Notes under the pieces: model-generated
Seen by the model: the letters and a program-made list of their open reading frames with translations, nothing else
Databases searched by the model: none
Told to the model about the DNA's origin: nothing
In this document: positions 17,853 to 45,985 of the stretch, in pieces
Layout of the letters: the number at the start of each line of letters is the position of its first letter
Numbering within the stretch: the stretch's first letter is position 1
Position numbers and translations under genes: made by a program
Source: an uncultured Pseudomonadota bacterium
GTDB taxonomy: Bacteria > Pseudomonadota > Alphaproteobacteria > Rs-D84
Direction of reading: 5' to 3'
NCBI GenBank assembly: GCA_902787305.1
Contig: CADAFS010000009.1
Location: forward strand, 1 to 59,860
DNA: 59,860 nucleotides

Positions 17853-18953
17853 TTACTCTATACTCCAAAGCCAACAATGTTCGTCGGTGTGTGTATCACT
17901 GTCCCAACCGGCACATACCATTTTGTTTTGTTTTGTTTCAACAAATCCGGCGGTGGCAAGTTTTGTTGCATCGGTTTGCGCATTGTAGGCGTTCGCCGGG
18001 TCGTAAACCGCGCGTTCGCCAAATTCTTGGACACCGGTTTCGGCATTTACGCCGTTATACGTCACAACCGTGCCGGTCGTCCCCGTCGGCAATGCATTGT
18101 TCGTAATTTTAGAATTCAGTTCACTATACACATCCTTTAACAGTTCCAATGACACCAACGCACCCTTGATATAGTTTTGATTTGTGTTTGCGACATCACC
18201 GGTTCCACCAAAGTTTGATGTTTGATACTGTGCCAATGTTTTTGTTCCGTTAATATACAATATAACATTATCCGCGCCGGATCTTTTGGTAAGTGGTTGC
18301 GACCCACCCGCGGTGATATAACGCCGATTGACATCCCAATTGAACAACTCAATTGTTTGCCCACCAGTGGAGGCCATAGCATACGGATTTGTTGTGCTTG
18401 TCCATGCCGCCGGGAGTTTATCTTGTTTATTCACCAATCCTTCTGCCACGGCACGAACGGTCGGAACATAATTATCCATTTCTGGACCATATCCATTGCC
18501 ATCAGAATACGAGTCTAACGCCCCCTCATCATCCCAAATTGTTTGCACATCTAAAATACCTATCTTATTACCAACAAGTCCACTTGTAGAATCATATGTC
18601 GTAATCGCCGGCAACATTGTTTCGTCAGTAAACTCCACCAACCCGGTTATGATTTTGTCCTGTTTCGTATCGACATAGGCCTTAGATGCGACGGTTTTCT
18701 TGTCCAATTCGGTTGGTTCCGCAAATGATGGTGTGGCGACAAAAAGTGCAACAAGCGTGGCGAACCACACACCAAATTTGCGACACCCCGCCCTTGCGGG
18801 CACCCCTTTGGCCAGAGGGGAAATTGGACCGCGACAAGACGAGAGCAAAATTCTCCTCTGGCCAGAGGAGTCCGGCGTGGAACGCCGGGAGGTGTCGCCA
18901 ATAGCAAATAACGATTTATTTGCGGTATTAAAAATGTTGTTTATTTTTTTCAT
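17853..18953 (-). CDS. Secreted fibre/adhesin-like protein (family member 1)
   Basis: Signal peptide ending PSFA; TVASKAYVD, VPTVRAV and LATAGFV motifs resemble those of 36432 and 44588. Confidence 0.65.
   Translation of the reverse strand: MKKINNIFNTANKSLFAIGDTSRRSTPDSSGQRRILLSSCRGPISPLAKGVPARAGCRKFGVWFATLVALFVATPSFAEPTELDKKTVASKAYVDTKQDKIITGLVEFTDETMLPAITTYDSTSGLVGNKIGILDVQTIWDDEGALDSYSDGNGYGPEMDNYVPTVRAVAEGLVNKQDKLPAAWTSTTNPYAMASTGGQTIELFNWDVNRRYITAGGSQPLTKRSGADNVILYINGTKTLAQYQTSNFGGTGDVANTNQNYIKGALVSLELLKDVYSELNSKITNNALPTGTTGTVVTYNGVNAETGVQEFGERAVYDPANAYNAQTDATKLATAGFVETKQNKMVCAGWDSDTHTDEHCWLWSIE
18781..18897. repeat. CCCCTC-type palindromic element inserted in frame in the CDS
   Basis: cgacacc...cccctttggccagagggg ... 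ctcctctggccagaggag...ggtgtcg; 117 nt. Confidence 0.75.
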
Positions 18954-19095
18954 TGTGTCCTCTCCCTATTTTGTTTGTTGTTTTGTGTCCTTTGCCAGAG
19001 AAAGTGGCAACATTTCTGGAATACGAAAGACCACCTCCCCCTGCGGGTACTCCTCCACAGGAGGAGAACTAAAAAACGTCGCCAAATGGGACGTG

Positions 19096-19287
19096 TCGGG
19101 GTGTTGAGAAATCATCGTATCAGTGATTCCGTGGCCTTTTGCAAGTGCATTATAACCAACGGCACCCCAACAAGCGGGGGACAAACTATTACGGTGCAAA
19201 ACATTAGGAAAATCACAATGGATTGCGATGCTTTGCACCGGACACGATAGGCTTCTCACAGCCCCGAACCAGATTCCCATCTGATTC
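19096..19287 (-). ncRNA. Structured 5' leader resembling phage C4 antisense RNA with downstream target
   Basis: GNRA hairpin, GGC-TGTGAGAA-GCC loop, long third stem, complementary ttctcaacaccccga and gatacgat downstream. Confidence 0.5.
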
Positions 19288-19293
19288 AAGTTT

Positions 19294-19323
19294 ATTATAT
19301 CAAAAATCACCGAATCGGGTCAA
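19294..19323 (-). promoter_or_regulatory. Sigma70 promoter with CGATTCG in the spacer
   Basis: TTGACC-CGATTCG-gtgatttttga-TATAAT. Confidence 0.65.
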
Positions 19324-19368
19324 GGGTAAAAAAATTACTTTAAGAATTTTGTCCCATGTGGTAAAATT

Positions 19369-20937
19369 GTGGGTATGAGAAATGTGCTGAAATTCCTTTG
19401 TAATTTTGCGTTGTGCTTTGTCGCAATAGATGCATGGGCGATAGAGATAGGTAGTACATATGACGAAAGTAATCCATATGGGGATATTAGTTTTGGGCCT
19501 TTGGATTCAGATACTACTATTATAAACCATGGTGTGATAGGTGGAACGATAACTATTACTGGGGGTATTCTTGTTACGATTCAAAATTATGGTGAGATAA
19601 TAAATCCAATTTTATGCATAGATTGTGTTCCGGCAAATATAAATCAGATTATTACTGGAAACGGGGATATGAATCTGATTGCCGGTTTATCGGGGCATAG
19701 GGTTATTGTTGATAACGAAAATAATAACATAAATTTATCTGATGTTATTGCCGCCGCGGGTGGTGCGGGGAAAATTGTTCTGACCGGTGCAAATGTCGTC
19801 CTTGATATTGGCGCGATTGATACACACCCGGCCATAGAATTTAACCCTGGGGCGGCTGGAAATTCCACGAATTCGGTGGCCTTTATAATTCGTGGGTGGA
19901 ATGAAAACTGGGATGAATCACAACCGATATTGAATGGCATAGTGCTTAGCAATGCCAGTGATAATTTTGGTGGCGCGGAATTTATAGGTGTTGATTCAAT
20001 GTTTGACCCCTATGCGGAATTGAACGGCAGTCGTTTATACGCCCGCTTTGCGCGACAGACAAATTACGGCATCGTTTTCGAAAACGATCTTGGTGATTGG
20101 TTGGACGAATTACGCGATGAAAATCCGGATGATAAATTGATTGGTGCATTAGATGCCGCACGCAGTCGGGCGGGGTTGCGCGATGTGTTGTTGAATTCAA
20201 TGCGGACAAATCCGATACGGTTGTTGGATCCGGTGCGGTCGTTTAATACATTTATGCTCGGCGACCACATACATGATTTGGCGTTCGGGGTTGTGGCGGA
20301 ACCGTTCTATATTTATTCCGGTGATTTTTCCGTCCTTGGTGGCGGTGTGGGTGTTGCCGGGCGCGTTGCCAAGAATTTGGTTGCAAAGTTTGGGGGCTAT
20401 GCGGGCCGAATGGATTATGATGGCGAAATTGATAATTTTAATGCGATGGTATATGGTGCGAATTTTGGCGCGTTGTATAAAGATTCTGATTTTTATGCGC
20501 GGGCGGTTGGAACGTTGTCTTCGGCGCAATTTAAAGACATAGAAATTTTTGATGGTGTGCGTGGCAAACAAAATCCAAATGGAATTTCCGGGGCGGGAAT
20601 TGCCGACGGTGGAATCGTGTTTCGGGTGCTTGATGAATTTGATTTAACGCCGTTTATTGGTGCGCGGTTTGACTATGCCGGGGTTGCGGGATTTTCGGAT
20701 ACGGATGTGAATATGCGGTTTGGTGTGAATATAGATAAAGAAACGGTTGTTGATGGAAATAAATATGCGTTTGGGTTAAGTGCGGTTGGGCAAACGAATG
20801 GCGATATCTATGGTTCGATTTATACCGATATAATGTCGGTTGTTGATGGTGTCGGTGGGCGGTTGCAGTTTGGAATTTTGAACGATGATTTGGGTTTGTC
20901 GTATCGTGTTTCGTTGGATGCAAAGTTTGCATTTTAA
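19369..20937 (+). CDS. Autotransporter-like outer-membrane protein
   Basis: Signal peptide, Gly/Asn/Ile-rich passenger, C-terminal barrel ending AKFAF. Confidence 0.65.
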   Translation: MGMRNVLKFLCNFALCFVAIDAWAIEIGSTYDESNPYGDISFGPLDSDTTIINHGVIGGTITITGGILVTIQNYGEIINPILCIDCVPANINQIITGNGDMNLIAGLSGHRVIVDNENNNINLSDVIAAAGGAGKIVLTGANVVLDIGAIDTHPAIEFNPGAAGNSTNSVAFIIRGWNENWDESQPILNGIVLSNASDNFGGAEFIGVDSMFDPYAELNGSRLYARFARQTNYGIVFENDLGDWLDELRDENPDDKLIGALDAARSRAGLRDVLLNSMRTNPIRLLDPVRSFNTFMLGDHIHDLAFGVVAEPFYIYSGDFSVLGGGVGVAGRVAKNLVAKFGGYAGRMDYDGEIDNFNAMVYGANFGALYKDSDFYARAVGTLSSAQFKDIEIFDGVRGKQNPNGISGAGIADGGIVFRVLDEFDLTPFIGARFDYAGVAGFSDTDVNMRFGVNIDKETVVDGNKYAFGLSAVGQTNGDIYGSIYTDIMSVVDGVGGRLQFGILNDDLGLSYRVSLDAKFAF

Positions 20938-22232
20938 TCAACAATTTTTCCACGCAATGATGCGCGGTTCGCCGCGGTGATTTTGATGTTCGCCATTTGT
21001 TTCGGATTTTCCACGCGCGCAACGATACACTGTTGCATATATGGTGTGCGATAGAGCAGGTGGCGCCCGGTTTTATCCGCGCCTTCGTAAAGGCAGGTTA
21101 GTTTTTTTCCGACACATGTTTCATTGAATTCGCGTTGAATTTCGTTTAGCACGCCGTCAAGTATCGCAAGTCGTTCGCGTTTTACCTTTTCGCTGATTTG
21201 GTCGGGCATCAATGCCGCCGCCGTATGCGGGCGGGGCGAATATTTGAATGAATAAGAATTTATATAACGAACGCGGCGTGCGATTTCCAGTGTTTGTTCA
21301 AAATCAGAATCAGTTTCGCCAGGAAATCCAACGATAAAGTCCGATGAAATTTGAATGTCCGCACGCGCGGCGCGCAATTTGTTTATGATGTCCATGTACG
21401 CGTCCAAACTGTATGGGCGATTCATGCGGCGCAACACATCGGGTGAACCACTTTGAATTGGCATATTCAAAAATGGCAACAGTTTTTGTTCGGTCGCAAA
21501 CATTTGAATTAAATCGTCCGTCATTTCCGTTGGATAACTGGAAGTAAATCGTATACGGCGGATTTCTGGGATTTTTGCGGTTGCGCGTATTAAATCAGAA
21601 AGACGGAAAATTTTGCCGTTTTCATCGGTGTATTTATATCCGTTCACATTTTGCCCAAGGAAACAAATTTCCACCGCGCCGGTTTTCGCCGCATGCAACG
21701 TGTCGCGCATAACATCATCGAATGCGCGTGAAATTTCGCGCCCGCGTGTGTATGGCACAATGCAATATGTACAACAATGATTGCAACCTTCCTGAATTGG
21801 GATATAAGATACGGTTGGCGCGGTTGTCATTTGTGGCAATTCATCGAATTTTTCAAGACCGGTTAAATCGATGTTTAACAATTTTGTATCCGGGTCGGAT
21901 AAAATTTCTGGCAACCGATGATAACTTTGCGGACCCAAAACAAAATTTAATTCGGGGATTCGATGAAATGCGGCGGCGCCAACCTCACGCGCGACACAAC
22001 CAACAATGCCGAAAATTGCGTCCGGCTTTTTCGCGTCGCGCACGCGCCCCAGTTCGGAAAATACTTTATTTGTTGCCTTTTCACGGACGGAACAAGTGTT
22101 TAGTATTATTATGTCCGCGTCGGCAACACTTTTGGTTGCCGTCATTCCGCGCGCATTCAGCATGGCGGCGATGCGCCAACTGTCGTACACGTTCATCTGA
22201 CAACCAAAAGTTTTAATAAAGTATTTTTTCAT
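20934..22232 (-). CDS. miaB: tRNA-2-methylthio-N6-isopentenyladenosine synthase MiaB
   Basis: TFGCQMNVYDS, NTCSVRE, CNHCCTYC radical-SAM motif, SSDFIVGFPGET. Confidence 0.95.
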   Translation of the reverse strand: MKKYFIKTFGCQMNVYDSWRIAAMLNARGMTATKSVADADIIILNTCSVREKATNKVFSELGRVRDAKKPDAIFGIVGCVAREVGAAAFHRIPELNFVLGPQSYHRLPEILSDPDTKLLNIDLTGLEKFDELPQMTTAPTVSYIPIQEGCNHCCTYCIVPYTRGREISRAFDDVMRDTLHAAKTGAVEICFLGQNVNGYKYTDENGKIFRLSDLIRATAKIPEIRRIRFTSSYPTEMTDDLIQMFATEQKLLPFLNMPIQSGSPDVLRRMNRPYSLDAYMDIINKLRAARADIQISSDFIVGFPGETDSDFEQTLEIARRVRYINSYSFKYSPRPHTAAALMPDQISEKVKRERLAILDGVLNEIQREFNETCVGKKLTCLYEGADKTGRHLLYRTPYMQQCIVARVENPKQMANIKITAANRASLRGKIVD

Positions 22233-22234
22233 TT

Positions 22235-22969
22235 TTATTTTTCATGATAGAGAGAACGCATACAATCTGCAAAACGTTGTTGTCGTTCTTTGTCATAGGC
22301 CCGTTTACACGCCATTTCCAAACGTTCCCTGGAAATATGGTGATTTTCATCCATAGTAAGTTCATAAAAATCCGCCGATGACAATTGTTCTTCCGGAGTT
22401 CCCTGCATTAATTGTTTTGCGCGTCTACGATCCGCCCGGACTTGTTTACGTGTGTGGCGGCCATGCACAGGTTTTTTAGAACGGTATTGCAAAGGTGACT
22501 TTTTGGCTGGCAAGTTTAACCCCAACACGTCTTCATAAGGATCAGTGACAGTTGATACATACCCATACAAATTAGGTGAAAATTCTATGAGTAGTAATCT
22601 TCTTAGGGCTGTGCTATCCAACGCCGCAGCACAACAGCGTAGTGCTTTTTTATCCAAATGTCTGCCTTCTGGTGTCATTGGGCGCATACGGGTATGTTTT
22701 GGTTTTATTTTTATTGTTTTTTTTGATTCTAGTGCTTCAGAAACAGCGAATTTTTTTGGTTCTTCTTTTTTTGTGGTCGGTTTTTTGACAATGTCGCTTC
22801 CTGGGCGATGCAAAGGGTTATATTTAACCAGTTGTATCGGTTTTCGTTTTGTTTTTACTGGATTGATTTCAGATACCGGAACATATGTGATAACCGTACC
22901 CGTTCGTGGTATGGACATTTCACCAGTGATTGGATTGTAATTTACTATGATTCTGTCAGTCATTTTCAT
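22235..22969 (-). CDS. Hypothetical basic protein
   Basis: 244-aa ORF with AAGGA RBS, abutting miaB; Lys/Arg-rich. Confidence 0.6.
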   Translation of the reverse strand: MKMTDRIIVNYNPITGEMSIPRTGTVITYVPVSEINPVKTKRKPIQLVKYNPLHRPGSDIVKKPTTKKEEPKKFAVSEALESKKTIKIKPKHTRMRPMTPEGRHLDKKALRCCAAALDSTALRRLLLIEFSPNLYGYVSTVTDPYEDVLGLNLPAKKSPLQYRSKKPVHGRHTRKQVRADRRRAKQLMQGTPEEQLSSADFYELTMDENHHISRERLEMACKRAYDKERQQRFADCMRSLYHEK

Positions 22970-22982
22970 TTCCTTTTGGTTT

Positions 22983-23168
22983 TTATTTACATTTTGTTCG
23001 ATTAAATAAAGTTTGTTGTTTTATTATTATTTTGTATCTGTTGTTTGTTTTGGGGTTTTCTTGATATTCGGGTTTGCGTGGTGTTAGTTGGATATCTAAA
23101 TTCATAATTTCTTGTCGAAATTTTTCAACAATTATTTCTACAAATTTCTCCAATTCCATCAATGCCAT
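22983..23168 (-). CDS. Small hypothetical protein
   Basis: 61-aa ORF filling the gap between gatB and 22969 on the same strand. Confidence 0.4.
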   Translation of the reverse strand: MALMELEKFVEIIVEKFRQEIMNLDIQLTPRKPEYQENPKTNNRYKIIIKQQTLFNRTKCK

Positions 23169-23180
23169 TTCAAAATCCGT

Positions 23181-24830: not shown

Positions 24831-24834
24831 TTTT

Positions 24835-29437: not shown

Positions 29438-31063
29438 TTAATTCAATGGGGCGCCCCAATGTTGCTGTATCGTGCGTTCCGCATCCATCGGGCTAACCAA
29501 CACTTGCGGGGTCAAAATGACGACCAACACATCACGGGTTGATGCCGTTTCACGCGACCCAGACAACAACATAAAATCCGGATCCCCAAGCCCATAGCGC
29601 ATATCATTATTCGCCTGTTTTTCAAAGCCCGACACAACCAACATTTGCCCAGATTCCATGATAACTTCCTGCATGAAACTGCGTTCTTCAACCTCTGGCA
29701 ATTGCAGGGTCACTTCGCCAATTGTTTGACTTGACATCTTTAACAATTCGCGAACCGACATACGGAACAACAACAATATCTTTCCATTTTCCAAAATGTT
29801 CGGCAATAACTGCATCGAAAAACCGGTTTCCAAACTGTCTTGGTCCACGGTACTTGATTCGACGGTTGTAAAGTTCCGCGATTCGAACCGTTTAATATAC
29901 CCGGTACTCTTGGTATTATTGACCGGCGCAACACGGTTATTACGCGTTGTCACACCAACATTGGTCACCAACGAAACCTTGCCTTGCTTTGCCAATGCCT
30001 GAACCAACGCTGTACTGCCCGCGATACCGGCAAGTGAACCATTATTTATTTGGTCATTGGTATATGCGCCCGGAACCGTCGCCCCATTTTCCAAATGCGT
30101 CGCCCCGGTCAGGCCCGACAATTCATTCGACAAAACCGCGATATTTATGGCACTGGCCTCTGGGGACGAGAAATTATTCTTTGGATTTGCAACAATGTTA
30201 AGCCCCGTCGCCGCATTTATCGCCGCCGCCAAATTCAAACCAAACCCCGAATCGTTTGCGATTGAAACCTGTAAAACCTTGACATCAATCGTCACCAATT
30301 GTGACAACCGTTTATTTTGCCGTGCGATATAATCGCCAACACGCGCCAACACCGACGGTGGTGCGGTCACGGTTATTGTTCCCAAACTGCGCGACACGGT
30401 AAAGTTCGCATTTTCCGCCTTGCCAATAATTGATGAAATGGTGCTTTCAACTTCGTCCCATTCTTTCAGTGTTGTTTCCAAATAAACCTGATTTCCGTCA
30501 TCCGTTTGTACCGACGATTGATACGACACATCCGTTCCCAATGCGTACAATGTAAACGTCCGTGTTTCCGTTTCATAGAACACAATCGCCGTCTTATCAT
30601 AATACCAGAGCAAATCTAAATCGGTCGCAACCTGGGACAATAACCCAGACAACTTTCCGGTGTACGCAACATTCATCGTACGCTTTAATTTATCAGATGC
30701 AATCTGGCTATCAATCTTTACCGGAATACGCGTAATAGAATTGATATTATTCGCCAACACTTGCAACGTCACGGGTTCATTCAACAAAATTGTGACGCCG
30801 GTATCGGTTTCAAATTGTTTCGGCAAATCATTTTTATGTTCCAACAGCATCGATTTCCCACCAAGCCACACACCTTCGGACATTGAAACCGTGTCACCAC
30901 TGGCAACCTTGGCACGCGGATTTTTTGCCATTTCAAAGGCATCATATACATTAACAAAATCTTTATCAACGGTGGCGGCAACCTTGGCCGAATTACGTGT
31001 CGCACAACCCGCGACCGCAACAAAAATCAAAAGTGCAACAAAAAATTTAAACGCCTTGAACAT
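29438..31063 (-). CDS. Type IVb pilus lipoprotein secretin (PilN/BfpB-like)
   Basis: Lipobox VAGC, Secretin_N-like segment (LGTITVTAPPSVL), C-terminal secretin domain (TGFSMQLLP, QLPEV, SGQMLVVSGFE, VVILTP). Confidence 0.85.
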   Translation of the reverse strand: MFKAFKFFVALLIFVAVAGCATRNSAKVAATVDKDFVNVYDAFEMAKNPRAKVASGDTVSMSEGVWLGGKSMLLEHKNDLPKQFETDTGVTILLNEPVTLQVLANNINSITRIPVKIDSQIASDKLKRTMNVAYTGKLSGLLSQVATDLDLLWYYDKTAIVFYETETRTFTLYALGTDVSYQSSVQTDDGNQVYLETTLKEWDEVESTISSIIGKAENANFTVSRSLGTITVTAPPSVLARVGDYIARQNKRLSQLVTIDVKVLQVSIANDSGFGLNLAAAINAATGLNIVANPKNNFSSPEASAINIAVLSNELSGLTGATHLENGATVPGAYTNDQINNGSLAGIAGSTALVQALAKQGKVSLVTNVGVTTRNNRVAPVNNTKSTGYIKRFESRNFTTVESSTVDQDSLETGFSMQLLPNILENGKILLLFRMSVRELLKMSSQTIGEVTLQLPEVEERSFMQEVIMESGQMLVVSGFEKQANNDMRYGLGDPDFMLLSGSRETASTRDVLVVILTPQVLVSPMDAERTIQQHWGAPLN

Positions 31064-31087: not shown

Positions 31088-32167
31088 TTAATCTTCGGTT
31101 GTTGATATTACCAAAACACGATTTCCCTTGTAAAACTTGGCATACGGCACCGGTATAGCACGTCCGAAATTACGCACCACCGCGGACGCGACATCAACGA
31201 AACGACCTTTGAACACGGCACTGGCCTCTATCGGATATTCACGTGATGTTGTCCAAACCAAATCCCAACCTTCCTTGTCACACCAAGATTGCAAAACTTC
31301 GCGTAATGTTTGACCACTTGCCACAACCCAAGAACGAACCTGGTCTTGCAAGCTAACCGGTGGTTCCGCATCCGCCGACAAATCAACCACCATTTCCGAA
31401 CCTTCGGCAATAACCATCGTGTCTTGGCCTGGGGTTATATTGTTCACAACACTAACCACACCATTACCGTCAACGGTTATAACACCACCGCCGGTGACAA
31501 TATCACCGTTCGCCGTTCTTTCAACCAAACCATTGCGTGCCAAATACGCATCGTACCCATCGGCATAGCGAACACATTTTTTGCGCCCACTGCGTGACAC
31601 CGCCAAAACATTTCCACCATCATCTTCCAACACTTCGCGTTGCAACAACGGCATTTCCGCACCATTTACACATTCAGTGTCAAACCCGGTCGGTATCGGC
31701 ATTCCGTGCAACATATTTGCGCCACCGGACCACCCCGAACCATCACGCGCACCACGAACGCCCATATTAAAATTATTTTCCACAACCAAATCATCCCCAA
31801 CCTTGGAAACAATTTTTATATTATCAGATTGCTTCTTTTTAGAACAAACACCTTCGGCACAGGAAACGGTGGTATCCGCCTCGGACCCGATGGGCCACGC
31901 CGGAATTGCAACCGGTTGCACCGGCATAGGTTGCGGTTGATATTCAACCTGTTGGTATTCGTATGCCTGTTCCTGATAGGGCTGTTGTTCATAATAAACC
32001 TCCCTATACTGTACCGGCTGTTGATATTGTTCTGTATAATTTTCCCTATCGTCACGGTCTTCTTTATAAAACACCTCTGACGTCACGACCTGTTCCAACG
32101 CATTCGCCGCAAAGCAATAGCCAGCGGCGGTTGCAAGCATAGCAGCAATTAAAATTTTGCGAAACAT
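31088..32167 (-). CDS. TcpQ-domain pilus biogenesis protein (PilL/TcpQ-like)
   Basis: C-terminal W.VASGQTLREVLQSWCDKEGWDLVW....YPIEASAVFKGRF; signal peptide. Confidence 0.8.
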   Translation of the reverse strand: MFRKILIAAMLATAAGYCFAANALEQVVTSEVFYKEDRDDRENYTEQYQQPVQYREVYYEQQPYQEQAYEYQQVEYQPQPMPVQPVAIPAWPIGSEADTTVSCAEGVCSKKKQSDNIKIVSKVGDDLVVENNFNMGVRGARDGSGWSGGANMLHGMPIPTGFDTECVNGAEMPLLQREVLEDDGGNVLAVSRSGRKKCVRYADGYDAYLARNGLVERTANGDIVTGGGVITVDGNGVVSVVNNITPGQDTMVIAEGSEMVVDLSADAEPPVSLQDQVRSWVVASGQTLREVLQSWCDKEGWDLVWTTSREYPIEASAVFKGRFVDVASAVVRNFGRAIPVPYAKFYKGNRVLVISTTED

Positions 32168-36431: not shown

Positions 36432-37970
36432 TTACGGATTCGACGATACCGTCTGTGCCATCGGTATCCATTCAAGTGCAACACCCCCAGCATTGTCATT
36501 AGCAGATGCACTGTAAGACAACACCAACGCACATGCCACACCATTAGTGCTGGTAATTCCATTAGCACCATACTCACAATCCCCGGTTGGTTCTGGAATC
36601 GTAAGTCCACCGGTTAAACCTGTAACATACTCTTTAACCGCATATGCCGACGCAAGTTTGTCTTTTCCAGCCATAGCATCTGCAGCTGTAGCAGAACTAA
36701 TAGCGCTACCAGCATGACCAACATTTAATAATCTCACTTCTGCAAGGTTTGAAATTTCTGGATTCGGGGCAACTTCAATGTAGCCACCTTCATAAACATT
36801 GTTCTGCATAGTGTAATCACCAACCAACTCTCTCCAGCCAGATGAATATGTTGTGTCGCTTCCACTGGTCGTCGCTGTATTATAACCAATCATAACCTTG
36901 CCTGTACTGGTATTCTCAATTTTTGGTTGATAACTCTCCCCCGCGGCACTAATCGCACCCGTCACAAAATTATAAACGTTTTTGACGGTTGGAACTTTCT
37001 TATCACCATCGGTTCCAGTAGCATTGGTGCTGTTAATCGTGGTTGCATCCGTGCCAGAGCCAGCCGTTTGCAATAACGAATAAACCGCTTTACCTGTCGC
37101 CAATTTCGTACCATTGTTTGTAATATCCCCTATCACCGTTCCAACTTGTCCGCTCGGAATGTTAATTTTGTAAACACCAGAATCTTCTTTTATGGTAACA
37201 TAGTCCGTGCTTGACTGCGCACCAGTTGCCACTGCCTCTAACTTTTTCCAGTCTGCGATATTGTTTGTACCATCAACGGTGTTATGTCCAAGGTACAAAC
37301 TTGTTCCATCTGTGGTCGGCGCCTTTGGTTGGAAATTACCACCTTGGGTCGTCACGAAATCATACACGGCCTTGGCCGACGGATACTTTGTGGGGCTATT
37401 ATAAAACTGCGCTATAGTATTATTATCATTCCCATCTAACTTATTCCCTTTCTTTTCGGCATAACTTACAACTGCCGCCGATGTTGGCACCGTTGTATCA
37501 TTTTCGGCATCACTACCACTCGTCGCGTCACTAAGGGACGTATCAAGCAAACCTCTAACCGCGCCAACTGTCGTCAATCTTTCTGTATTCGTATTACTCG
37601 TAATATTTGATGTAGTACCAAGTTTCGTTGTATCAATTCCAACGGTCCATGTTCCATTATTGTTACTCGCAGTTGTATATGTGTTATCACCCTGGATAGT
37701 AACCGCGGCATCACCAACCGTGTCAGTCACGAATTTATAAACATTTAATGCAGATGGTGCTTTGTCATTCGGGGAATTCTCATCAATAGTTGTGTCACCA
37801 TACGTAAGGTTGGCACCGCTCCCTGTTTCTGTAACGCCCTCAACCTTGCTATCAACATACAATTTTGATGTTACGGTCTTGGCATCCGTCGTGGGATCTG
37901 CCATTGCACTTTGGGCGAAAACGGCCGCGGCAAATCCAACAAAGACCAGCCCCCTAATTTTTACTCTCAT
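36432..37970 (-). CDS. Secreted fibre/adhesin-like protein (family member 2)
   Basis: Signal peptide MRVKIRGLVFVGFAAAVFAQSAMA; repeated P(S/T)xxxVYxFV and LxTxxAV motifs; C-terminal IPEP..C..CALV..LEWxxMAQ. Confidence 0.75.
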   Translation of the reverse strand: MRVKIRGLVFVGFAAAVFAQSAMADPTTDAKTVTSKLYVDSKVEGVTETGSGANLTYGDTTIDENSPNDKAPSALNVYKFVTDTVGDAAVTIQGDNTYTTASNNNGTWTVGIDTTKLGTTSNITSNTNTERLTTVGAVRGLLDTSLSDATSGSDAENDTTVPTSAAVVSYAEKKGNKLDGNDNNTIAQFYNSPTKYPSAKAVYDFVTTQGGNFQPKAPTTDGTSLYLGHNTVDGTNNIADWKKLEAVATGAQSSTDYVTIKEDSGVYKINIPSGQVGTVIGDITNNGTKLATGKAVYSLLQTAGSGTDATTINSTNATGTDGDKKVPTVKNVYNFVTGAISAAGESYQPKIENTSTGKVMIGYNTATTSGSDTTYSSGWRELVGDYTMQNNVYEGGYIEVAPNPEISNLAEVRLLNVGHAGSAISSATAADAMAGKDKLASAYAVKEYVTGLTGGLTIPEPTGDCEYGANGITSTNGVACALVLSYSASANDNAGGVALEWIPMAQTVSSNP

Positions 37971-39525: not shown

Positions 39526-40364
39526 GATTCGGTTTTTAATATCTTTAATGTTGTTCGTTTCGTTACCATTATCGCAAACAGCACGATTATAAATGGAACC
39601 AGCAAAAGTGCAACCCATCCGGCCCCGGATATTTCCAGCATCGCCATCAACCCAACGCGGGCGGACCGCGCAAGCCCCAATGTCATAAGTAATATCGGGC
39701 ATGCAATTGCAAAACCAATGATGCATGCGATGGTGCAAATTCGTGCGACAATTATTTGCATTTGCCGTGTTATAAACCTATCACTGGCGCCGACCTGGTT
39801 CAAAATTTCAAGTTCGCGTCGATGTAAAATTGCCGTGTTGCGTGCGATAAATGAAACACATGTGCCGATTGTCACAATGATAAGCCCAAGCAGTAATGCA
39901 AGTATCGTCACCATTTTCCATCCCGCGGATATTGACGGCCGTAATGCATCATAATGTGGAATAAAACGCGCATTTGTACCGATTAAAGCGCCGATTGTGT
40001 TCATATCGGATTTTGATTTAAATTTAACCTCGAACATTACCGGCAGATATTTTTTTAGAACGCCATTACCGCCACCAAGCCATGGTTTCATTAGGTTTGA
40101 CATTTCGGCATCGTCAATTTGGCGCATACTATCAATTTTATCCTGGTTCGATTCAAAAATTTTCTTGATTGTGTCGGTTTTTTCGGAATTTGTAATTTGC
40201 ACCGTGGCATGGACATCCCATTGGCGATTCCAATTTACAATCCCCGTGCCAATCGCCAGTGCCAAACCCAATGACAACACCGCCAAAAAAGTCATAATGC
40301 CCATAATTGCCGTCATAAATACGGACTGGTCGTGAAACAGTGAAAACACAATCGGTTTTTTCAT
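39522..40364 (-). CDS. ftsX: Cell division permease FtsX
   Basis: Four TM helices, HRRELEILNQVGASDRFI; downstream of ftsE. Confidence 0.85.
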   Translation of the reverse strand: MKKPIVFSLFHDQSVFMTAIMGIMTFLAVLSLGLALAIGTGIVNWNRQWDVHATVQITNSEKTDTIKKIFESNQDKIDSMRQIDDAEMSNLMKPWLGGGNGVLKKYLPVMFEVKFKSKSDMNTIGALIGTNARFIPHYDALRPSISAGWKMVTILALLLGLIIVTIGTCVSFIARNTAILHRRELEILNQVGASDRFITRQMQIIVARICTIACIIGFAIACPILLMTLGLARSARVGLMAMLEISGAGWVALLLVPFIIVLFAIMVTKRTTLKILKTES

Positions 40365-40366
40365 CT

Positions 40367-41146
40367 TTATTTATTTCCAATATCGTTAAATTGTTTTGAT
40401 AATTCCGTAAAATACTTTGTGTCGTGGATTTCAGGCGCAACCCTTTTCGCCCCGGTATGCGCGCGCGCCGGCCCCGTGAATGCCAGTTTATGATTTTCAA
40501 CATGCATAACCGGGAATTTATATGTTTCCATCAGTTTTGAATTATGTGTGGCAAGAATAATTGTCGTTCCAAACATTTTATTCATCTGAATAAACAGTTC
40601 CATCAAACGTGACGCGTTTTCATCGTCCAAATTTCCGGTTGGTTCGTCCGCAAGCATAATTGATGGCTGAACAATAATTGCACGTGCCACAGAAACGCGT
40701 TGTTGTTGGCCGCCACTTAAACTCTTGGGATTCGCATTTGCGTATTTGGCAAGTCCGACCCATTCCAATGTTTTTGTGACGAGTTTTTTTATCTTTACTT
40801 CATCCACACCACGCACACGCAGGGGCAATGCGACATTATCAAACACCGATATGTGCGAAAGCAAAGAATATTCTTGGAACACAATCGCCATTTTGTGGCG
40901 CATTTCGGTTATTTCGTCGCGCGACATAGAATCGGTCGGAACACCAAAAATCTTTATCGTTCCGCGACAAGGTTTGTGCAGATGATATATCAATCGCAAC
41001 AGTGTCGTTTTGCCCGCGCCCGATGCCCCCGACAGGAAATAAAACGAACCCGCACCGATGTTAAAAGACACATCAGTCAATATATCCGGATCGTTGTCAT
41101 AACGTGCACCAACGCCGATAAAAGAAATCACGGTATTATCTTCCAT
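40367..41146 (-). CDS. ftsE: Cell division ATP-binding protein FtsE
   Basis: GASGAGKTT, LSGGQQQRV, LADEPTGNLD, ATH. Confidence 0.9.
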   Translation of the reverse strand: MEDNTVISFIGVGARYDNDPDILTDVSFNIGAGSFYFLSGASGAGKTTLLRLIYHLHKPCRGTIKIFGVPTDSMSRDEITEMRHKMAIVFQEYSLLSHISVFDNVALPLRVRGVDEVKIKKLVTKTLEWVGLAKYANANPKSLSGGQQQRVSVARAIIVQPSIMLADEPTGNLDDENASRLMELFIQMNKMFGTTIILATHNSKLMETYKFPVMHVENHKLAFTGPARAHTGAKRVAPEIHDTKYFTELSKQFNDIGNK

Positions 41147-41274
41147 AACGTGTATACTAGTAAAAAAAGTTTTTGCGGTCAAGGGCGTTAGAAAGCGAAC
41201 GAAAAATTTTTGTCTTTTATAAAAAATTCAAATGTGTTATAGTTTTAAGGAAAGGAAGCATTTAGGAGATTTTT

Positions 41275-42234
41275 ATGAAGCGTTTTTTGGGCGGATTTGT
41301 GGCGTTTTGTACCGTTTTGGGTTGTAATCGGGCTTATGCGGCGGGTGGCACCCCCAGGGTTGTTTCTAGTGCTATGCCAATTGGTGGTGTAATCACTAGT
41401 GTAAACCCCAGAACGCGCTATGTTGGTAGTACGCCGGTTGTGACACGCAGTTATGGCCAGCGTACTTATGTCCCGCAACAGAATGTCAATAGGCAACCAA
41501 CAAGTTATCAACGAACAAATTATGTGACACAGCCAAATATCCGAACAATGACGTATCAGCAATCACGCCTGGTTGGTGATAATTCCGGAACTTCAGGGGC
41601 GTATGTGTATAACAAAACCAAAATCGGTTATGTCGGAATGAGTTTAGATGTGAACCTATTGAATTGGACCAACAAGTACAAGGCCACCCCAGACGAAGCG
41701 GTTTATAATGCGGCATTTGATCATGATGATTATCGTTTTAAAATGCTAATAGGTGGACATATTGTTGCGGGTTATCGCTTTAACCCGGGTTGGCGCATGG
41801 ATATAGAGGGCGGATTTACATCGGAATTCGAAGATTCTGATAATGGTATAAGTTTTAAGTTATCGGTGCCATACGCGACGGCGAACGTGTATCACGATTT
41901 TAAAAATGGACTTTATCTTGGAATCGGTGGCGGTGTCGCATTTCCGACGATTTCAATGGAATGGGTGCAATTTACGGCTAATAATTCAAGCAAGACTGCG
42001 ACATCACCCATGGGTGCGGCGATGCTTGGGTACACATACTATTTATCAGAAAATTTGATTTTGGATGTGCGTTATCGTTTTGCCGGGTTCAAGGGACCAA
42101 AACTTAAACGTGGGGTACAAGATTGGCCCCCAGAGGGCACAGTAGTGGAAACGGCACCATTGGAGTCATTGGAAACCAGTATTGGTTTTATGATGGATAA
42201 TTCGATTTCAATCGGACTTAAATACGAATTTTAG
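41275..42234 (+). CDS. Opacity/Msp4-like outer-membrane beta-barrel
   Basis: Signal peptide, ANVYHDF, YLGIGGG, LDVRYRF, terminal GLKYEF. Confidence 0.75.
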   Translation: MKRFLGGFVAFCTVLGCNRAYAAGGTPRVVSSAMPIGGVITSVNPRTRYVGSTPVVTRSYGQRTYVPQQNVNRQPTSYQRTNYVTQPNIRTMTYQQSRLVGDNSGTSGAYVYNKTKIGYVGMSLDVNLLNWTNKYKATPDEAVYNAAFDHDDYRFKMLIGGHIVAGYRFNPGWRMDIEGGFTSEFEDSDNGISFKLSVPYATANVYHDFKNGLYLGIGGGVAFPTISMEWVQFTANNSSKTATSPMGAAMLGYTYYLSENLILDVRYRFAGFKGPKLKRGVQDWPPEGTVVETAPLESLETSIGFMMDNSISIGLKYEF

Positions 42235-42293
42235 TTGACGAAAATTTGAAACAAAATTCCCGCGATTTTTTCGCGGGTATTTTTTCCTAAAAA

Positions 42294-42379
42294 CGATTCG
42301 TTTTCCGCAGAAAACCGATTCGTTTTTAGGAAAAAAAGCGAATCGGTTTGTTTGACAAAAAAATATAAAAATCGATTCG
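42294..42379. promoter_or_regulatory. Array of four CGATTCG (GANTC) sites
   Basis: Sites at 42294, 42316, 42339 (inverted) and 42373. Confidence 0.65.
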
Positions 42380-42482
42380 GTTTATCACGTGAACACGGCG
42401 GAAACCGTGGCATAGAAAAAATTTAGTGGACAAATTTTGTGAACAGCCAAACCGGTGATATAATATGGTTAGAGGAAGAGAG

Positions 42483-44162
42483 ATGAAGTTCACATTTCAT
42501 ACATCTTTGATTGCGTTGATTTTTGCAGTTGGTGCATCGGATACATTTGCGGCACCGGCGGTGCGTCAATTGGGTGGTGGTTTTACCGGTCTGGGGTCTG
42601 GGAACACATCTACGGGTATGGCTGTGAATACATCTGGGGGAACGTCTGGGAATATGCCAGGGGGGAATATAAATACAAAGCCGGCGGGTATAACAGCGTC
42701 GCGTGCGGGTTCAATACGTTCAATGCCCCGTCCGACGGCCACGTCAAATGGTTCTGCGCCGGTTGCAACGGTTTCATCAGGAACGGCCGATACAAATCGT
42801 TCGGCATCCACGCAACAGCGTTTATCAATTGGCAGTTATATCGGTGCCCCGCGTCAGATTAGTAGTGGTGGCGGTGGTGATACCACAGAAATTACCAATG
42901 ATATAAAAAATATCAATAACGAGATTCAAAACATCACGAACATAGTTGAAGGTTTGGAAACAGATATTTCCGGTAAGGTTGATAAAGAACAAGGTATCAA
43001 TGAGGCCGGCAAGGCATTGGTTGTTGGGTCTGATGGTTTTGTGACTACGTCTGAATTTGTGACGCCGGGCGAATTGGATGTGGATTTGTCGGGCAAGGTT
43101 GATAAAAATCAGGGTATAGGCGAAGCCGGCAAAGCGTTGATTGTCAATGCCGACGGTATTGTGACGACCGGCGATGTTTTGAAACCGGGCGATGTCGATT
43201 TATCTGGCAAGGTTGATGTGCTTCAGGGTCGTCAATATAAAGGCAAGGCATTGGTCGTAGATAATGATGGCAAGGTAAGACCGATTGGTGAATTTATGAC
43301 CCCGGGCGAAGTTGATATTTCCGGCAAGGTTGATAAATTCCAAGGCCCGGAACATGCCGGCAGTGCATTAATTGTTGACCAATATGGAAATGTGCAACCG
43401 ACCGGTGATTTTGTTGAAGCCGACCAAGGTGTGGAACATCATGGCAAGGCATTGGTTATTAATGATGAAGGCAAGGTTGTTCCAAGTACGGTCGATATTG
43501 GCCAGGTAAGTGTTGACCTTAGTGGCAAAGTTGATAAGAACCAAGGTGTTGATGCCGCTGGTCATGTTTTGTCTGTGAATAGTGAAGGCAAGGTCACCAA
43601 TGAAAACGCAGTTTATTTCAAGCCTGAAATGGATACAAAACTGTCGCAAAAATTGAACAATACCGCAGACCCAGAATTGTATTCTGGCCGTGCAATGGTT
43701 GTGAATTCGGATGGTGACATTGTTCCGACGGGTGATTTTGTTGAAACCGACCAAGGTGTGGAACATCATGGCAAAGCATTGGTTATTAATGATGAAGGTA
43801 AGGTTGTTCCAAGTACGGTTGATATTGGCCAGGTAAGTGTTGACCTTAGTGGCAAAGTTGATAAATTGCAAGGCGATGAACATGTAAACGAAGTTTTGGT
43901 CGTTGGTTCGGATGGCAAGGTCACCGATCAAAAGATTGTAAATGCCAATGTTTCAGACGATGCGGCGTTGGAACGTAAAAAGATGGCCGCGGACATAACA
44001 GATACGCTTGATTGGGTTGATGCGTGGAAGAACCAGGCGGGAGGCGATCCAACATCTGAAGATCCGACAAATCCATACAAACTGAATTTAGGTACGCGGT
44101 ATGTTATGGCATTGGATGAATTCGGTCAAAAGGCATGGTTCCGTGTCGTCGTAGACGAATAA
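42483..44162 (+). CDS. Secreted repeat protein (SGKVDKxQG...GKALVV repeats; tail-fibre-like)
   Basis: Signal peptide, coiled coil, about nine ~30-38-aa repeats; DNA repeat 43398-43537 / 43725-43864. Confidence 0.75.
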   Translation: MKFTFHTSLIALIFAVGASDTFAAPAVRQLGGGFTGLGSGNTSTGMAVNTSGGTSGNMPGGNINTKPAGITASRAGSIRSMPRPTATSNGSAPVATVSSGTADTNRSASTQQRLSIGSYIGAPRQISSGGGGDTTEITNDIKNINNEIQNITNIVEGLETDISGKVDKEQGINEAGKALVVGSDGFVTTSEFVTPGELDVDLSGKVDKNQGIGEAGKALIVNADGIVTTGDVLKPGDVDLSGKVDVLQGRQYKGKALVVDNDGKVRPIGEFMTPGEVDISGKVDKFQGPEHAGSALIVDQYGNVQPTGDFVEADQGVEHHGKALVINDEGKVVPSTVDIGQVSVDLSGKVDKNQGVDAAGHVLSVNSEGKVTNENAVYFKPEMDTKLSQKLNNTADPELYSGRAMVVNSDGDIVPTGDFVETDQGVEHHGKALVINDEGKVVPSTVDIGQVSVDLSGKVDKLQGDEHVNEVLVVGSDGKVTDQKIVNANVSDDAALERKKMAADITDTLDWVDAWKNQAGGDPTSEDPTNPYKLNLGTRYVMALDEFGQKAWFRVVVDE

Positions 44163-44587
44163 AGAGAGTTTCGAACAACAATGAACAAACAAAAAAAGGA
44201 TAAAAAAAGTAAGAGAATAGAGGGGAAATCAAAAATTTAAATTTGTCGGATGGGACCATCACCTTTCCCCGGGCCCCGAAAAATGCGCAGCATTTTTTGG
44301 GTGGTTCACTGGAAAGGGATCCGGCGGGATCGCCGGGGGGTATGGGTTTATCCTATGACATTGGCATACCTGTTTGGTGTGGTGGTGGGTTTTACGATTT
44401 TGTTTGACCCTTACCCCGTCGCCATTCGGCGCCACCCCTTCCCGCCGGGAAGGGGAGAATGAGAGCTTTGGTAGTAAAAAGGGACACAATAAACCTTTGA
44501 ATACCACAGAAAGCGCATTAAACCGCCGTGTTCAATTGACACCCGGGGTGGTGCAAAACAACAACAAACAAAAAAAAGGGAAAAACA

Positions 44588-45985
44588 ATGAAAGTAAAAA
44601 TCAGAGGATTAGTATTTGCAGGCTTTGCCGCGGCGGTGTTCGCGCAAAGTGCGATGGCTGTCGTTCCGCCATCCTTGATGACGTCGGAAGATTTGCCACA
44701 AGGGTATACAACAGTTGATGACTATACAGCGGATGTGAAAAAGACGGTTACGTCGAAAAAGTACACCAATGAAACATTCCAAGAAAGATTGCAGGGTAAT
44801 GCGACCAACTCTCCCGATACAGCTCTTGAAGAAGGTGGTGATGGAAGTGTTACGGAAAAAGCGGCGTTCATCGGATGGAATTATGGTCAAGGTGGTGAAA
44901 ACAAAGAATGGGTGAAACTTACTGGTGCGGTACAGGCTGGTGACAATACATACGTTGAAATCGTGCACGATACTAAAAGTGCAACAAAAACGCACAATGT
45001 TCGATTGAATCCGGCTGCAATCACTGGGACGGCTAATGATATTTTGAGTGCCGATTCAGATGCTACGAATACTGTTAGAAAGAAATTGACAACCGCTGAG
45101 GCTGTATATGGGGTGCTTGATCGTGAAACGGACGGTACCAATGGTTTGGGAACAACCACCATCAGTGCAGACTCAACAGATAACAAGGTTCCAACATCGA
45201 AAAACGTGTATGACTTTGTGAATGGAAAACTTGACGGAATGGGTGCAAATATGAAGGGTAATGTGACATATCATACGCAAAAGGTTGCGGTAATGAAAGA
45301 CTCTTGGGTTCAGATTCACCCTTCGGATGCACCGTATGTTGTGACCCCGACGGGAGACCAGTTGAATAATATCGACCATTGGGAACTGATTGTCCCGAAT
45401 GCCAGGGTTGCGAGTTCGGCACAAAACATTATTGATGGTGGAACATCTGGTGATACGGATGTGCAAACCAATTTGACCACCGCCAAGGCCGTGTATGATT
45501 ATGCACAACCAGGTGCGACGTCTGCAGCCGGGGCACAGGTTGGTGTTAAAAGTGGGAATACTTCGACATGGTATACATTGGCCGCCGGTCAAGATGGAAG
45601 AAACATAGGTACCAATACCCAAGATACACCGTATGCCCAGATTACTCGCGATAATGGTGAGGGTACCAATACGGCCGGTGTTTATGTCGACTTGAATCAT
45701 AGTCGGGTAATGTTGGCTTCAGATTATACTGGTAGTGATTTCCAAAAAGGTATCGCCAATGTTACTGACAATATCGCGGGTGCTGGGTTGGCATTGGCAA
45801 CCGCGGGTGCCGTCAAAGAGTATGTTGATAGCATAACCAATGGTAATAATTTACCGGAAATGCCGGGAAAATGTAAGGTTGATGGTGTTCATTGTGCTTT
45901 GGTTACGGTTCCTCATGCGGCCGATGCCACGCATGACGAAGCATATGCTACCTTGGAATGGACCGTCATGGCACAGGCACAGTAA
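44588..45985 (+). CDS. Secreted fibre/adhesin-like protein (family member 3)
   Basis: Near-identical signal peptide to 37970; KTVTSK, VPTSKNVYDFV, LATAGAVKEYV, LPEMP.KC..CALV..LEWTVMAQ. Confidence 0.75.
   Translation: MKVKIRGLVFAGFAAAVFAQSAMAVVPPSLMTSEDLPQGYTTVDDYTADVKKTVTSKKYTNETFQERLQGNATNSPDTALEEGGDGSVTEKAAFIGWNYGQGGENKEWVKLTGAVQAGDNTYVEIVHDTKSATKTHNVRLNPAAITGTANDILSADSDATNTVRKKLTTAEAVYGVLDRETDGTNGLGTTTISADSTDNKVPTSKNVYDFVNGKLDGMGANMKGNVTYHTQKVAVMKDSWVQIHPSDAPYVVTPTGDQLNNIDHWELIVPNARVASSAQNIIDGGTSGDTDVQTNLTTAKAVYDYAQPGATSAAGAQVGVKSGNTSTWYTLAAGQDGRNIGTNTQDTPYAQITRDNGEGTNTAGVYVDLNHSRVMLASDYTGSDFQKGIANVTDNIAGAGLALATAGAVKEYVDSITNGNNLPEMPGKCKVDGVHCALVTVPHAADATHDEAYATLEWTVMAQAQ

Follow-up and report, generated by a model that had tools for sequence, protein, structure and literature searches.

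A contig of 59,860 nucleotides from an uncultured gut alphaproteobacterium of the order Rs-D84 (CADAFS010000009.1 of assembly GCA_902787305.1) carries three genes for secreted, fiber-like proteins that possess no recognized anchor. The question raised by this locus is what these proteins are and how they could act outside the cell. An initial annotation, made from the sequence alone, suggested that they were trimeric variable adhesins displayed by the type IVb pilus or by another export route. The whole contig, referred to here as the window, is contig C9 of a genome of 904,312 bp in 19 contigs that is 91% complete. Our results from this study make it reasonably probable that the three proteins, named P0001, P0002 and P0003, are members of a lineage-restricted, recombining multigene family of Sec-exported homotrimeric fibers, likely surface contact or adhesion fibers, in an uncultured bacterium with a genome of only ~0.9 Mb.

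The Fiber Genes of the Window

The three open reading frames (ORFs) were confirmed to be open at 17853–18953(-), 36432–37970(-) and 44588–45985(+). Their features are given below, each with its basis in brackets. P0001 belongs to subfamily A1 and P0002 and P0003 to subfamily A2, G116 is the relative genome that was used as the comparison strain for divergence, and a slash marks a predicted cleavage site.

17853..18953, minus strand: P0001, a 366-aa fiber protein of the CWLW-ending subfamily A1, stop codon included (ORF and translation, relatives, homotrimer model)
18720..18953, minus strand: extended signal peptide of P0001, residues 1–78, ending ..ATPSFA/EP (sequence)
18802..18871, no strand assigned: palindromic repeat inserted in frame within the P0001 signal peptide (inverted repeat)
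18669..18698, minus strand: N-motif of P0001, KTVASKAYVD (pattern match; in the trimer interface, residues 88–105)
17856..17915, minus strand: putative C-terminal Cys-stapled hairpin of P0001, CAGWDSDTHTDEHCWLWSIE (invariant columns, model strands, trimer contacts)
36432..37970, minus strand: P0002, a 512-aa fiber protein of subfamily A2, stop codon included (ORF, blastp)
37899..37970, minus strand: conserved signal peptide of P0002, MRVKIRGLVFVGFAAAVFAQSAMA (invariant columns in 69 sequences; DNA shared with P0003 from about -35 through codon 24)
37851..37880, minus strand: N-motif of P0002, KTVTSKLYVD (pattern match)
36453..36599, minus strand: C-terminal module of P0002, IPEPTGDC..CALV..LEWIPMAQ (translation; conserved A2 columns C, C-A-L-V, W, M and A)
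44588..45985, plus strand: P0003, a 465-aa fiber protein of subfamily A2, stop codon included (ORF, A2 alignment, RNA-library contigs on parts)
44588..44659, plus strand: conserved signal peptide of P0003 (A2 columns; DNA likeness to G116 ends at 44662)
44741..44767, plus strand: N-motif of P0003, KTVTSKKYT, with a 27-aa variable insert before it (translation)
45851..45976, plus strand: C-terminal module of P0003, LPEMPGKC..CALV..LEWTVMAQ (translation, A2 columns)

The 5′ DNA of P0002 and P0003 is alike only from ~35 nt upstream of the ATGs at 37970 and 44588, where the ribosome-binding site AAAGAGGAAAAA is found, through the 24-codon signal peptide. Thus, the ATG at 37970 is likely the start of P0002, the longest frame of which extends to 38066. 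P0001 starts with the ATG at 18953, which is preceded by the ribosome-binding site GGGAGAGGA. The signal peptide of P0001 is lengthened to 78 residues by the in-frame palindromic element, an inverted repeat with 24-nt arms that are 83% complementary, while the consensus of 76 P0001 relatives has a short signal, MKKI...ATPSFA. P0001 has 213 relatives at E up to 1e-3. Longer translated inserts similar to this palindromic element (..FPSREGWRVAPAGVW.., ..IPAFAGMT..) were also found in paralogs on contigs C2, C4, and C7.

Each of the three proteins begins with a hydrophobic N-terminal signal followed by an AxA site (..PSFA/EP in P0001, ..SAMA/DP and ..SAMA/VV in the other two). None has a Cys at the cleavage site, by which a lipobox was defined, and none has a hydrophobic segment beyond the signal, as all 19-aa Kyte-Doolittle windows there were below the limit of 1.6. 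Neither YadA_anchor nor Autotransporter was matched in Pfam at E up to 1, and none of the three proteins had a significant match in Pfam, NCBIfam, or PHROGs. The Sec signals, the repeated neck motifs, and the C-termini quoted in the initial annotation, as well as the lack of a barrel, transmembrane helix or lipobox, were thus borne out by sequence, Pfam, and hydropathy. The motif TV(T/A)SKxY, which the annotation had placed at the start of the proteins, is indeed found in all three (KTVASKAYVD, KTVTSKLYVD, and KTVTSKKYTN), but it lies 7–28 residues past the predicted cleavage site and not at residue 1. A neck pattern matched seven times in P0002, five times in P0003 and once in P0001, for which the means over 2000 shuffles were 0.07, 0.03, and 0.01, respectively; these motif counts are descriptive only, as the pattern was derived from the three proteins themselves. 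Moreover, every mature chain contains exactly two Cys residues, and that of P0001 ends three residues beyond CWLW.

Family Size and Shared Architecture

The family is far larger than the three genes of the window. Blastp of P0001, P0002, and P0003 against all ORFs of the genome, with composition correction off, together with motif scans identified 36 ORFs or fragments that cover 31,083 of the 904,312 bp (3.4%). They are distributed over 16 of the 19 contigs, and the lengths of the members range from 140 to 860 amino acid residues. A strict DNA pattern for the N-motif matched 24 times in the genome, and the reversed control pattern did not match at all. Of the 38 contig ends, 19 have a family member within 500 b, so that the fiber genes are the main cause of the breaks in this assembly, half of which they explain.

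The members share a common plan, in which a signal peptide is followed by K-T-V-(T/A/S)-S-K-x-Y-V-D, variable segments between neck motifs, and finally C-x(4-22)-C-(W/T/A)-L-(W/V). P0002 and P0003 are full-length paralogs with 28% identity (blastp, E 1e-26). Two profiles, A1 from 76 P0001-like sequences and A2 from 69 P0002/P0003-like sequences, aligned with each other over the signal peptide and N-motif only (hhalign, 40 columns, probability 95%). Judged by sequence, P0001 is therefore akin to P0002 and P0003 through the signal peptide and N-motif only. The proposal of the initial annotation that the three ORFs form one family holds along their full lengths for P0002 and P0003, but only through these two N-terminal elements for P0001.

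The invariant columns of A1 are P80, V88, K97, Q98, I101, C347, G349, C360, W361, L362, and W363, and residues 85–95, the region of the N-motif, are nearly invariant. In A2, ten columns of the signal peptide as well as V54, Y349, C436, and L438 are invariant, and C429, W458, M461, and A462 are kept at at least 90%. The conserved Cys pair may form a disulfide; a DsbA-like gene is present in the genome. Ten other genomes of the same genus contributed 12 related ORFs, all of which begin with MK(V/I)(K/R).., followed by ..GF(A/M)A.. and a (S/T)-x-x-Y-(V/A/T) motif. Six of them have the P-x-P..C..C-(V/A)-L..W module or a variant at the C-terminus, and the other six have a Cys-free end.

In 15 of 26 frames with an N-motif, 3–34 residues are found beyond the Cys/Trp module, and in 14 paralogs the module is internal and followed by 145–215 more residues. 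Thus, the Cys/Trp module is a trimer cap or junction and not a sorting signal. Of the two roles that had been proposed for it, that of trimerizer fits its invariant Cys and Trp residues and the contacts at residues 358–364 in the trimer model described below, but that of sorting signal does not fit its internal position. Some members (C4:50321–52903 and one in the relative genome G114) run past the module into a short cystine-rich, knottin-like tail, for which Pfam toxin-family matches were at chance level only.

Scans against family libraries covered 16 members, the three window proteins and 13 paralogs, and gave nothing significant for the 13 paralogs in Pfam or PHROGs. Anchored forms were also not found among 33 longer relatives (642–1490 aa), all of which are without a precomputed Pfam domain. 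The description of the proteins as anchor-less thus extends from the three window proteins to the 13 paralogs and 33 longer relatives, none of which has a Pfam anchor.

The Homotrimer Model

When residues 79–366 of P0001 were modeled as three copies with alignment A1, the interface score ipSAE was 0.77, 0.84, and 0.87, with a median of 0.84, against 0.00 for the best of three controls, in line with the trimeric state suggested by the initial annotation. The runs agreed in at least 77% of contacts, and the predicted local distance difference test score (pLDDT) of the partners was at least 69. The predicted interface comprises residues 88–105, 160–180, 262–301, 328–345, and 358–364, which are the conserved motifs and the terminal hairpin. 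Moreover, residues 297, 332, and 338 contact the same residue of the other chains, as expected for a three-fold axis.

The AlphaFold2 (AF2) model of the P0001 monomer was poor (pLDDT 55.7, predicted template modeling score 0.27), as expected of an obligate oligomer, and too poor for a fold search. It contains helices at residues 166–179, 253–286, and 329–342 and the strands of the hairpin at 345–350 and 360–365, both at pLDDT ~75. Sequence and profile searches of the PDB with A1 and A2 found no chain that resembled either subfamily, with only chance-level rows at E up to 10. As no solved structure resembles P0001 by sequence, it is unlikely that the trimer passed from the memory of the model. 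Based on this model, the P0001-type fibers are probably homotrimeric.

Tips With a Lectin-Like Fold

In paralog C16:14901–15902, residues ~140–333 form a tip with the pattern LPxGYTxLEYIESTGTQYIDTG ... FIPAKR..GMYDTVxGxFFTN. At E up to 0.001, this domain was matched in 14,722 representative proteins, many of which are 800–3900 aa long and carry 4–12 tandem copies. Of 12 sampled carriers, 11 have no significant Pfam family, and one has BspA-type leucine-rich repeats and Listeria-Bacteroides repeats. The family carries a widespread, uncatalogued domain with a lectin fold.

The model of this tip resembles ConA/LamG/pentraxin jelly rolls, with 8hgg_C on top (VIA, Z 12.4, root mean square deviation 3.1, 165 aligned). 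The Z scores were 11.2 to the lectin domain of the Vibrio cholerae sialidase, 10.8 to a Bacteroides carbohydrate-binding protein, and ~8 to CBM40 modules and the tailspike of phage CBA120. The best viral model (BFVD) was that of a Siphoviridae protein (E 2.9e-15, 30% identity). The modeling thus supports the assignment of one tip type to the ConA/LamG lectin-like jelly rolls, and the adhesin-like character proposed for the family is consistent with the tip-bearing paralogs.

Hypervariability, Mosaicism, and Distribution

The backbone proteins of the genome are 95–100% identical to those of G116, such as the pilus secretin (100%), LepA (99.7%), ClpB (99.4%), and TolB (99.1%). By comparison, the G116 protein in the slot of P0003 is 37% identical over residues 190–462, and the best G116 match of P0002 is 32% identical. 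The variability that had been proposed for these proteins is thus evident even between closely related strains. The two genes upstream of P0003 are as follows.

41275..42234, plus strand: outer-membrane beta-barrel-like protein at the head of the fiber locus (weak OMP_b-brl match; own terminator at 42259–42277)
42465..44162, plus strand: 565-aa secreted repeat protein of another fiber type, directly upstream of P0003 (about nine repeats of DLSGKVDKxQG..AGKALVV..DG.V)

The G116 counterparts of these two are 69 and 71% identical, respectively. The DNA flanking P0003 is 94% identical to that of G116; this likeness is lost at 44662, the final signal-peptide codon, and is regained at 45956, shortly upstream of the stop codon with which the ORF closes at 45985. 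Three RNA libraries, each from a different bovine-gut study, contain contigs that are 95–99% alike to parts of 42.8–46.1 kb, and none covers 41.2–42.7 kb; these are assembled contigs with small word shares (0.08–0.18) that carry no information on strand or level. One of them has 84 different letters in place of 44661–44767, the segment right after the signal peptide of P0003.

Mosaicism was also found among paralogs of the genome. The body of C4:72046 is 93% identical to that of C1:100667, yet the two stand behind different signal peptides. The signal peptide of C4:72046 is 90% identical to that of C11:5–439, whereas their bodies are only 45% identical. The family is therefore both hypervariable and mosaic.

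In 121 genomes of the order Rs-D84, A1 was found in 3, A2 in 39, mostly via N-terminal profile positions only, and the strict N-motif in 2. At E up to 1e-5, A2 was found in none of 298 Alphaproteobacteria of other genera, nor in the two same-genus genomes of that sample. The relatives that are named in databases are labeled "MAG: Alphaproteobacteria bacterium," where MAG stands for metagenome-assembled genome.

The block at 17400–38100, from tRNA-Lys and P0001 to P0002, is missing at this position in G116, where the TolB operon abuts an acyltransferase gene. Its genes are on another G116 contig in a different order, and the difference reflects either a rearrangement at the fiber genes or a misjoin in a MAG.

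A Model for the Fibers

The fiber suggested by these results would consist of four parts. The conserved signal peptide would be followed by the conserved first neck, K-T-V-x-S-K-x-Y-V-D, the only module common to all subfamilies. In the stalk, short neck or coiled-coil motifs, D-x-x-[VL]-[PA]-T-x-x-A-V-x-x-[FY]-V, would lie on the three-fold axis and alternate with variable beta-rich inserts. The last part would be a C-terminal beta-hairpin with a staple of two Cys residues and an aromatic core (C..CWLW or P-x-P..C..CALV..W..MA), which would close the trimer and in many paralogs also link the stalk to a swappable tip, such as the ConA/LamG lectin-like jelly roll. The conserved N-terminal end would most likely be near the cell, with the variable stalk and tip directed outward, so that the fibers could act as exposed contact or adhesion fibers for a partner cell or a host glycan. 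Diversification would proceed by exchange of cassettes between the conserved signal peptide/N-motif and the gene end.

Several points weigh against this reading. No outer-membrane export route was identified for the fibers, and no surface anchor, lipobox, or known surface-retention motif was found. Searches of Pfam, PHROGs, phage records, IMG/VR, and the PDB revealed no sequence likeness to phage fibers, the tips of mosaic adhesive trimer (MAT) fibers, trimeric autotransporter adhesins (TAAs) or the foldon. P0001, P0002, and P0003 have no globular tip of their own, the model of the C16 tip is confident at residues 141–180 and 260–333 only, and a shared tip fold does not show function. Of the three window proteins, homotrimer modeling covered P0001 only. 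In the calibration of the modeling tool, 20 of 30 proteins solved as one-chain pairs attained the ipSAE mark, as did 1 of 23 single-chain structures; these counts are only rough for the P0001 trimer, as the calibration was based on two copies and the tool's own alignments. DsbB was not found in the genome, which is 91% complete. Finally, the RNA-library contigs reflect presence in RNA libraries and are no proof of transcription.

The Type IVb Pilus and the Export Route

The pilus genes of the window are as follows, the last of which had been called the PilV triplet.

29438–31063, minus strand: type IVb pilus secretin (family match; 100% identical in G116)
31088–32167, minus strand: TcpQ (family match; 97% identical in G116)
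2192..6076, minus strand: three large consecutive pilin-like proteins of 441, 399, and 465 aa (N-terminal G/xxxxE-type leaders; weak N_methyl match)

Other pilus genes are located elsewhere in the genome, with those for the ATPase and platform on C11 and that for the prepilin peptidase on C5. The three pilin-like ORFs, at 2192–3517, 3502–4701, and 4679–6076, have class-III-type leaders (..RG/TVLIEF.., ..GG/LVEVLL.., and ..RG/SFLIQA..) and only weak N_methyl matches in Pfam. From their sequences, they are candidates for the minor or tip pilins of this pilus.

Given these genes, the fibers could be cargo or tip adaptors of the type IVb pilus, in which the mature N-terminal peptide, as a TcpF/CofJ-like signal, binds the minor-pilin trimer and the fiber leaves through the pilus secretin to be displayed or released. 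We consider this unlikely. The export signal of TcpF/CofJ lies in the N-terminal 10–24 residues of the mature protein, includes a critical aromatic residue, and is bound in clefts of the minor-pilin trimer (PMC10120004). Similarly, the only module common to all fiber subfamilies is within ~30 residues of the mature N-terminus and has a conserved Tyr. In the trimer model, however, this N-motif is folded into the three-fold interface and is not a free peptide, and neither the A1 nor the A2 profile is similar to the PDB chains of TcpF or CofJ.

The exit route also speaks for pilus cargo to some extent, as the search for secretins in the genome returned only that of the pilus, and none of the other known exits for folded Sec substrates was recognized. 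Beyond it, the outer-membrane components detected were one Omp85 and three TolC-type proteins. TpsB (PF03865) and Slam (PF04575) were not matched in the genome, but they were not matched in the control genomes either, so that their absence is not shown.

The position of the fiber genes does not point to the pilus. Although three large pilin-like genes are found in the same window, the fiber genes are set apart from the pilus genes by housekeeping genes, and three fiber genes in 59.9 kb is at the level of chance, for which 2.4 are expected. In this genome, paralog C11:5–439, a 144-aa fiber gene at a contig end, comes right after the genes for the pilus ATPase and platform, in an arrangement that resembles the order tcpT-tcpE-tcpF. 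None of 20 relatives of the same genus, however, has an N-motif ORF downstream of the platform gene, among ORFs of at least 80 aa on the strand of that gene, and gyrB is usually the next gene in these relatives. The slot between the platform gene and gyrB is variable across the genus, being empty in most genomes and filled with unrelated secreted proteins in some.

The co-occurrence of fiber and pilus genes across MAGs, by which the initial annotation would have linked the two, is uninformative, since TcpQ is nearly universal in the order. It was found in 119 of the 121 genomes, whichever fibers are present, so that all genomes with fibers have the pilus, as do nearly all others. Moreover, the pilus is kept without these fibers, given that A1, A2, and the strict N-motif were found in only 3, 39, and 2 of the 121 genomes, respectively. 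A specific link of the fibers to the type IVb pilus is therefore not supported.

A related and speculative idea is that the shared N-terminal module of the ~36 fibers, signal peptide plus K-T-V-x-S-K-x-Y-V-D, serves as a common docking or export tag. A single conserved machine would recognize it, and the most plausible candidate is the trimeric tip of the pilus, which occurs across the order and has the only secretin found in the genome, so that one pilus would present an exchangeable library of three-fold fibers with different tips. We regard this as a long shot. If true, it would represent a modular "pilus-tip adaptor" system and explain in general terms how MAT-like fibers without an anchor exit the cell and stay attached to it.

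Other Explanations

It is improbable that the trimers remain in the periplasm, for instance as spacers or structural links, and are never exposed. Such envelope-internal fibers would agree with the Sec signal and with the finding of neither an anchor nor an outer-membrane route. However, three findings are typical of exposed surfaces under selection rather than of housekeeping parts of the periplasm: the extreme divergence between near-identical strains, the lectin-fold tips, which are shared with surface proteins of other gut bacteria and phages, and the number of copies, 36, in a reduced genome.

The lack of an anchor and the lectin-fold tips would also be expected of released soluble lectins or bacteriocin-like effectors that act on other cells without tethering the producer, as might the Cys-rich, knottin-like tails of some paralogs (C4:50321–52903; weak matches only). 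This is distinctly improbable, as the scans of 16 members revealed neither toxin nor enzyme domains, and a docking site common to all members would better account for their conserved N-terminal module.

Finally, it is very improbable that genes for the tail fibers of a prophage, tailocin, or gene-transfer agent were mistaken for cellular genes: despite the fiber-like motifs, the tip fold also known from phage proteins, and the viral tail-fiber clusters that were the nearest language-model clusters in the ESM Atlas (0.81–0.89, under the 0.9 bar), every intact member has a Sec signal peptide, whereas phage particles assemble in the cytoplasm, the neighboring genes are housekeeping genes (such as gatCAB, suf, clpB, and rpoC), and no match was found in 50,697 phage records (tblastn), in IMG/VR (both profiles), or in PHROGs (none at E < 0.1).

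Other Features of the Window

A promoter and terminator scan of the window gave counts that were not above those of shuffles, and only two terminators were relied on, one 3′ of the outer-membrane beta-barrel-like gene and one 3′ of P0003. An 892-aa autotransporter-like protein with Chlamydia-Pmp-like GGAI/FxxN repeats and weak Pertactin and Chlam_PMP matches is encoded at 48546–51224(+). A 522-aa protein with a weak autotransporter beta-domain is encoded at 19369–20937(+) and transcribed divergently from P0001. At 10451–12207(+) are two tandem paralogous genes for outer-membrane-protein-like products of 262 and 265 aa, which both end in ..FG(V/I)DF and have no Pfam match. At 55450–57693(+), ~4–6 kb downstream of tRNA-Leu (51684–51768), a gene similar to those of tyrosine integrases (Arm-DNA-bind_3 and Phage_int_M only) comes after three small ORFs rich in Cys and Arg; this region may be the remnant of an integrative element.

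Comparison With Known Systems

Candidatus Enterousia and the other members of Rs-D84 are common in the gut, have genomes of ~0.9 Mb, and lack respiration and standard nutrient transporters (PMC12306168). Given these lacks, they probably depend on contact with something else. That paper contains no mention of "adhes" or "secretion." The ~36 exported fibers, trimeric according to the P0001 model and bearing lectin-like tips, account for 3.4% of the genome and are the best available candidate for a contact apparatus. They also provide specific proteins for expression, localization, and glycan-array tests. No description of these fibers was found in the literature searched, in which the work on the "mosaic adhesive trimer" is, by title, all on Bdellovibrio-like predators. 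For this genome, the study adds a census of the family, a trimer model with controls, the recognition of the Cys/Trp module as a junction within the chain, a tip with a lectin fold, the exact boundaries of the cassettes, and the negative pilus tests.

Similar to TcpF and CofJ, the fibers are Sec-exported and anchor-less, and their host has a TcpQ-type pilus. The fiber N-motif is placed similarly to the functional signal of TcpF/CofJ, which lies near the mature N-terminus and has a key aromatic residue (PMC10120004). Different from TcpF/CofJ, however, the fibers are not at a conserved position of the pilus operon, have no sequence similarity to them, comprise many members instead of a single cargo, and have an N-motif that is predicted to fold into the trimer. 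With the phage receptor-binding proteins and gut-bacterial surface proteins that carry LamG/ConA-like jelly rolls, only the tip of C16:14901–15902 is in common, and the window proteins are without it.

The TAAs of the YadA family likewise have a trimeric architecture of neck and stalk repeats. However, the fibers match neither YadA_anchor nor the head or stalk, and their polarity is opposite, with the conserved end at the N-terminus. Structural neighbors of the fibers in the ESM Atlas that have YadA_stalk were at template-modeling scores of 0.2–0.28, which is not significant. The one true TAA of the genome, C5:10962–12737, was detected with the same family model, so that the YadA_anchor test is valid in this genome.

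T4 fibritin is a trimeric fiber of short helical segments broken by loops, and it is closed by the foldon, a small C-terminal beta-hairpin with a buried Trp. The IPE-x-P lead-in of P0002 resembles the start of this foldon, a likeness that the initial annotation had noted. Although foldon-tagged chains are present in the PDB, neither the A1 nor the A2 profile matched a PDB chain in its C-terminal region at E up to 10, and the likeness is thus not supported by sequence. Moreover, the putative hairpin of the fibers differs from the T4 foldon in its invariant Cys pair, its internal position in 14 paralogs, and its occurrence in Sec-exported cellular proteins.

The closest design is that of the MAT fibers of Bdellovibrio bacteriovorus, which were experimentally found to be displayed on the surface and combine a conserved end for retention, a mosaic trimer, and diverse tips (Caulton et al., 2024, PMC10769870). 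Both groups have a Sec signal peptide, a module common to all members, and a mosaic stalk that is trimeric, as modeled here for P0001, and both lack a recognized membrane anchor (PMC10769870). The diverse adhesive tips of the MAT fibers may have a counterpart in the lectin-fold tip of one paralog type, whereas the three window proteins end at or just after the Cys/Trp module. Both are also multigene, with 21 members in Bdellovibrio (PMC10769870) and 36 ORFs in this genome. The host in this study is a gut alphaproteobacterium with a reduced genome and, unlike Bdellovibrio, is not a known predator. The MAT fibers have ~1000 aa, share a beta-rich N-domain of ~130 aa, and in 13 of 21 cases end in a Peptidase_S74 chaperone (PMC10769870), whereas the family members have 140–860 aa, share ~20 residues after the signal, the two N-terminal regions being compared by description, and show no such chaperone in the 16 members scanned. 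Unlike that of MAT, the stalk of this family would end in a Cys-stapled hairpin, and the crystallized MAT tips in the PDB had no sequence match to the A1 and A2 profiles. Since the ~130-aa N-domain and the S74 chaperone are absent and no sequence similarity was found, the fibers share the MAT design but are not members of the MAT family. The family would represent a second lineage, unrelated by sequence, with the design of the Bdellovibrio MAT fibers, which would make the question of how anchor-less fibers are exported and retained a more general one.

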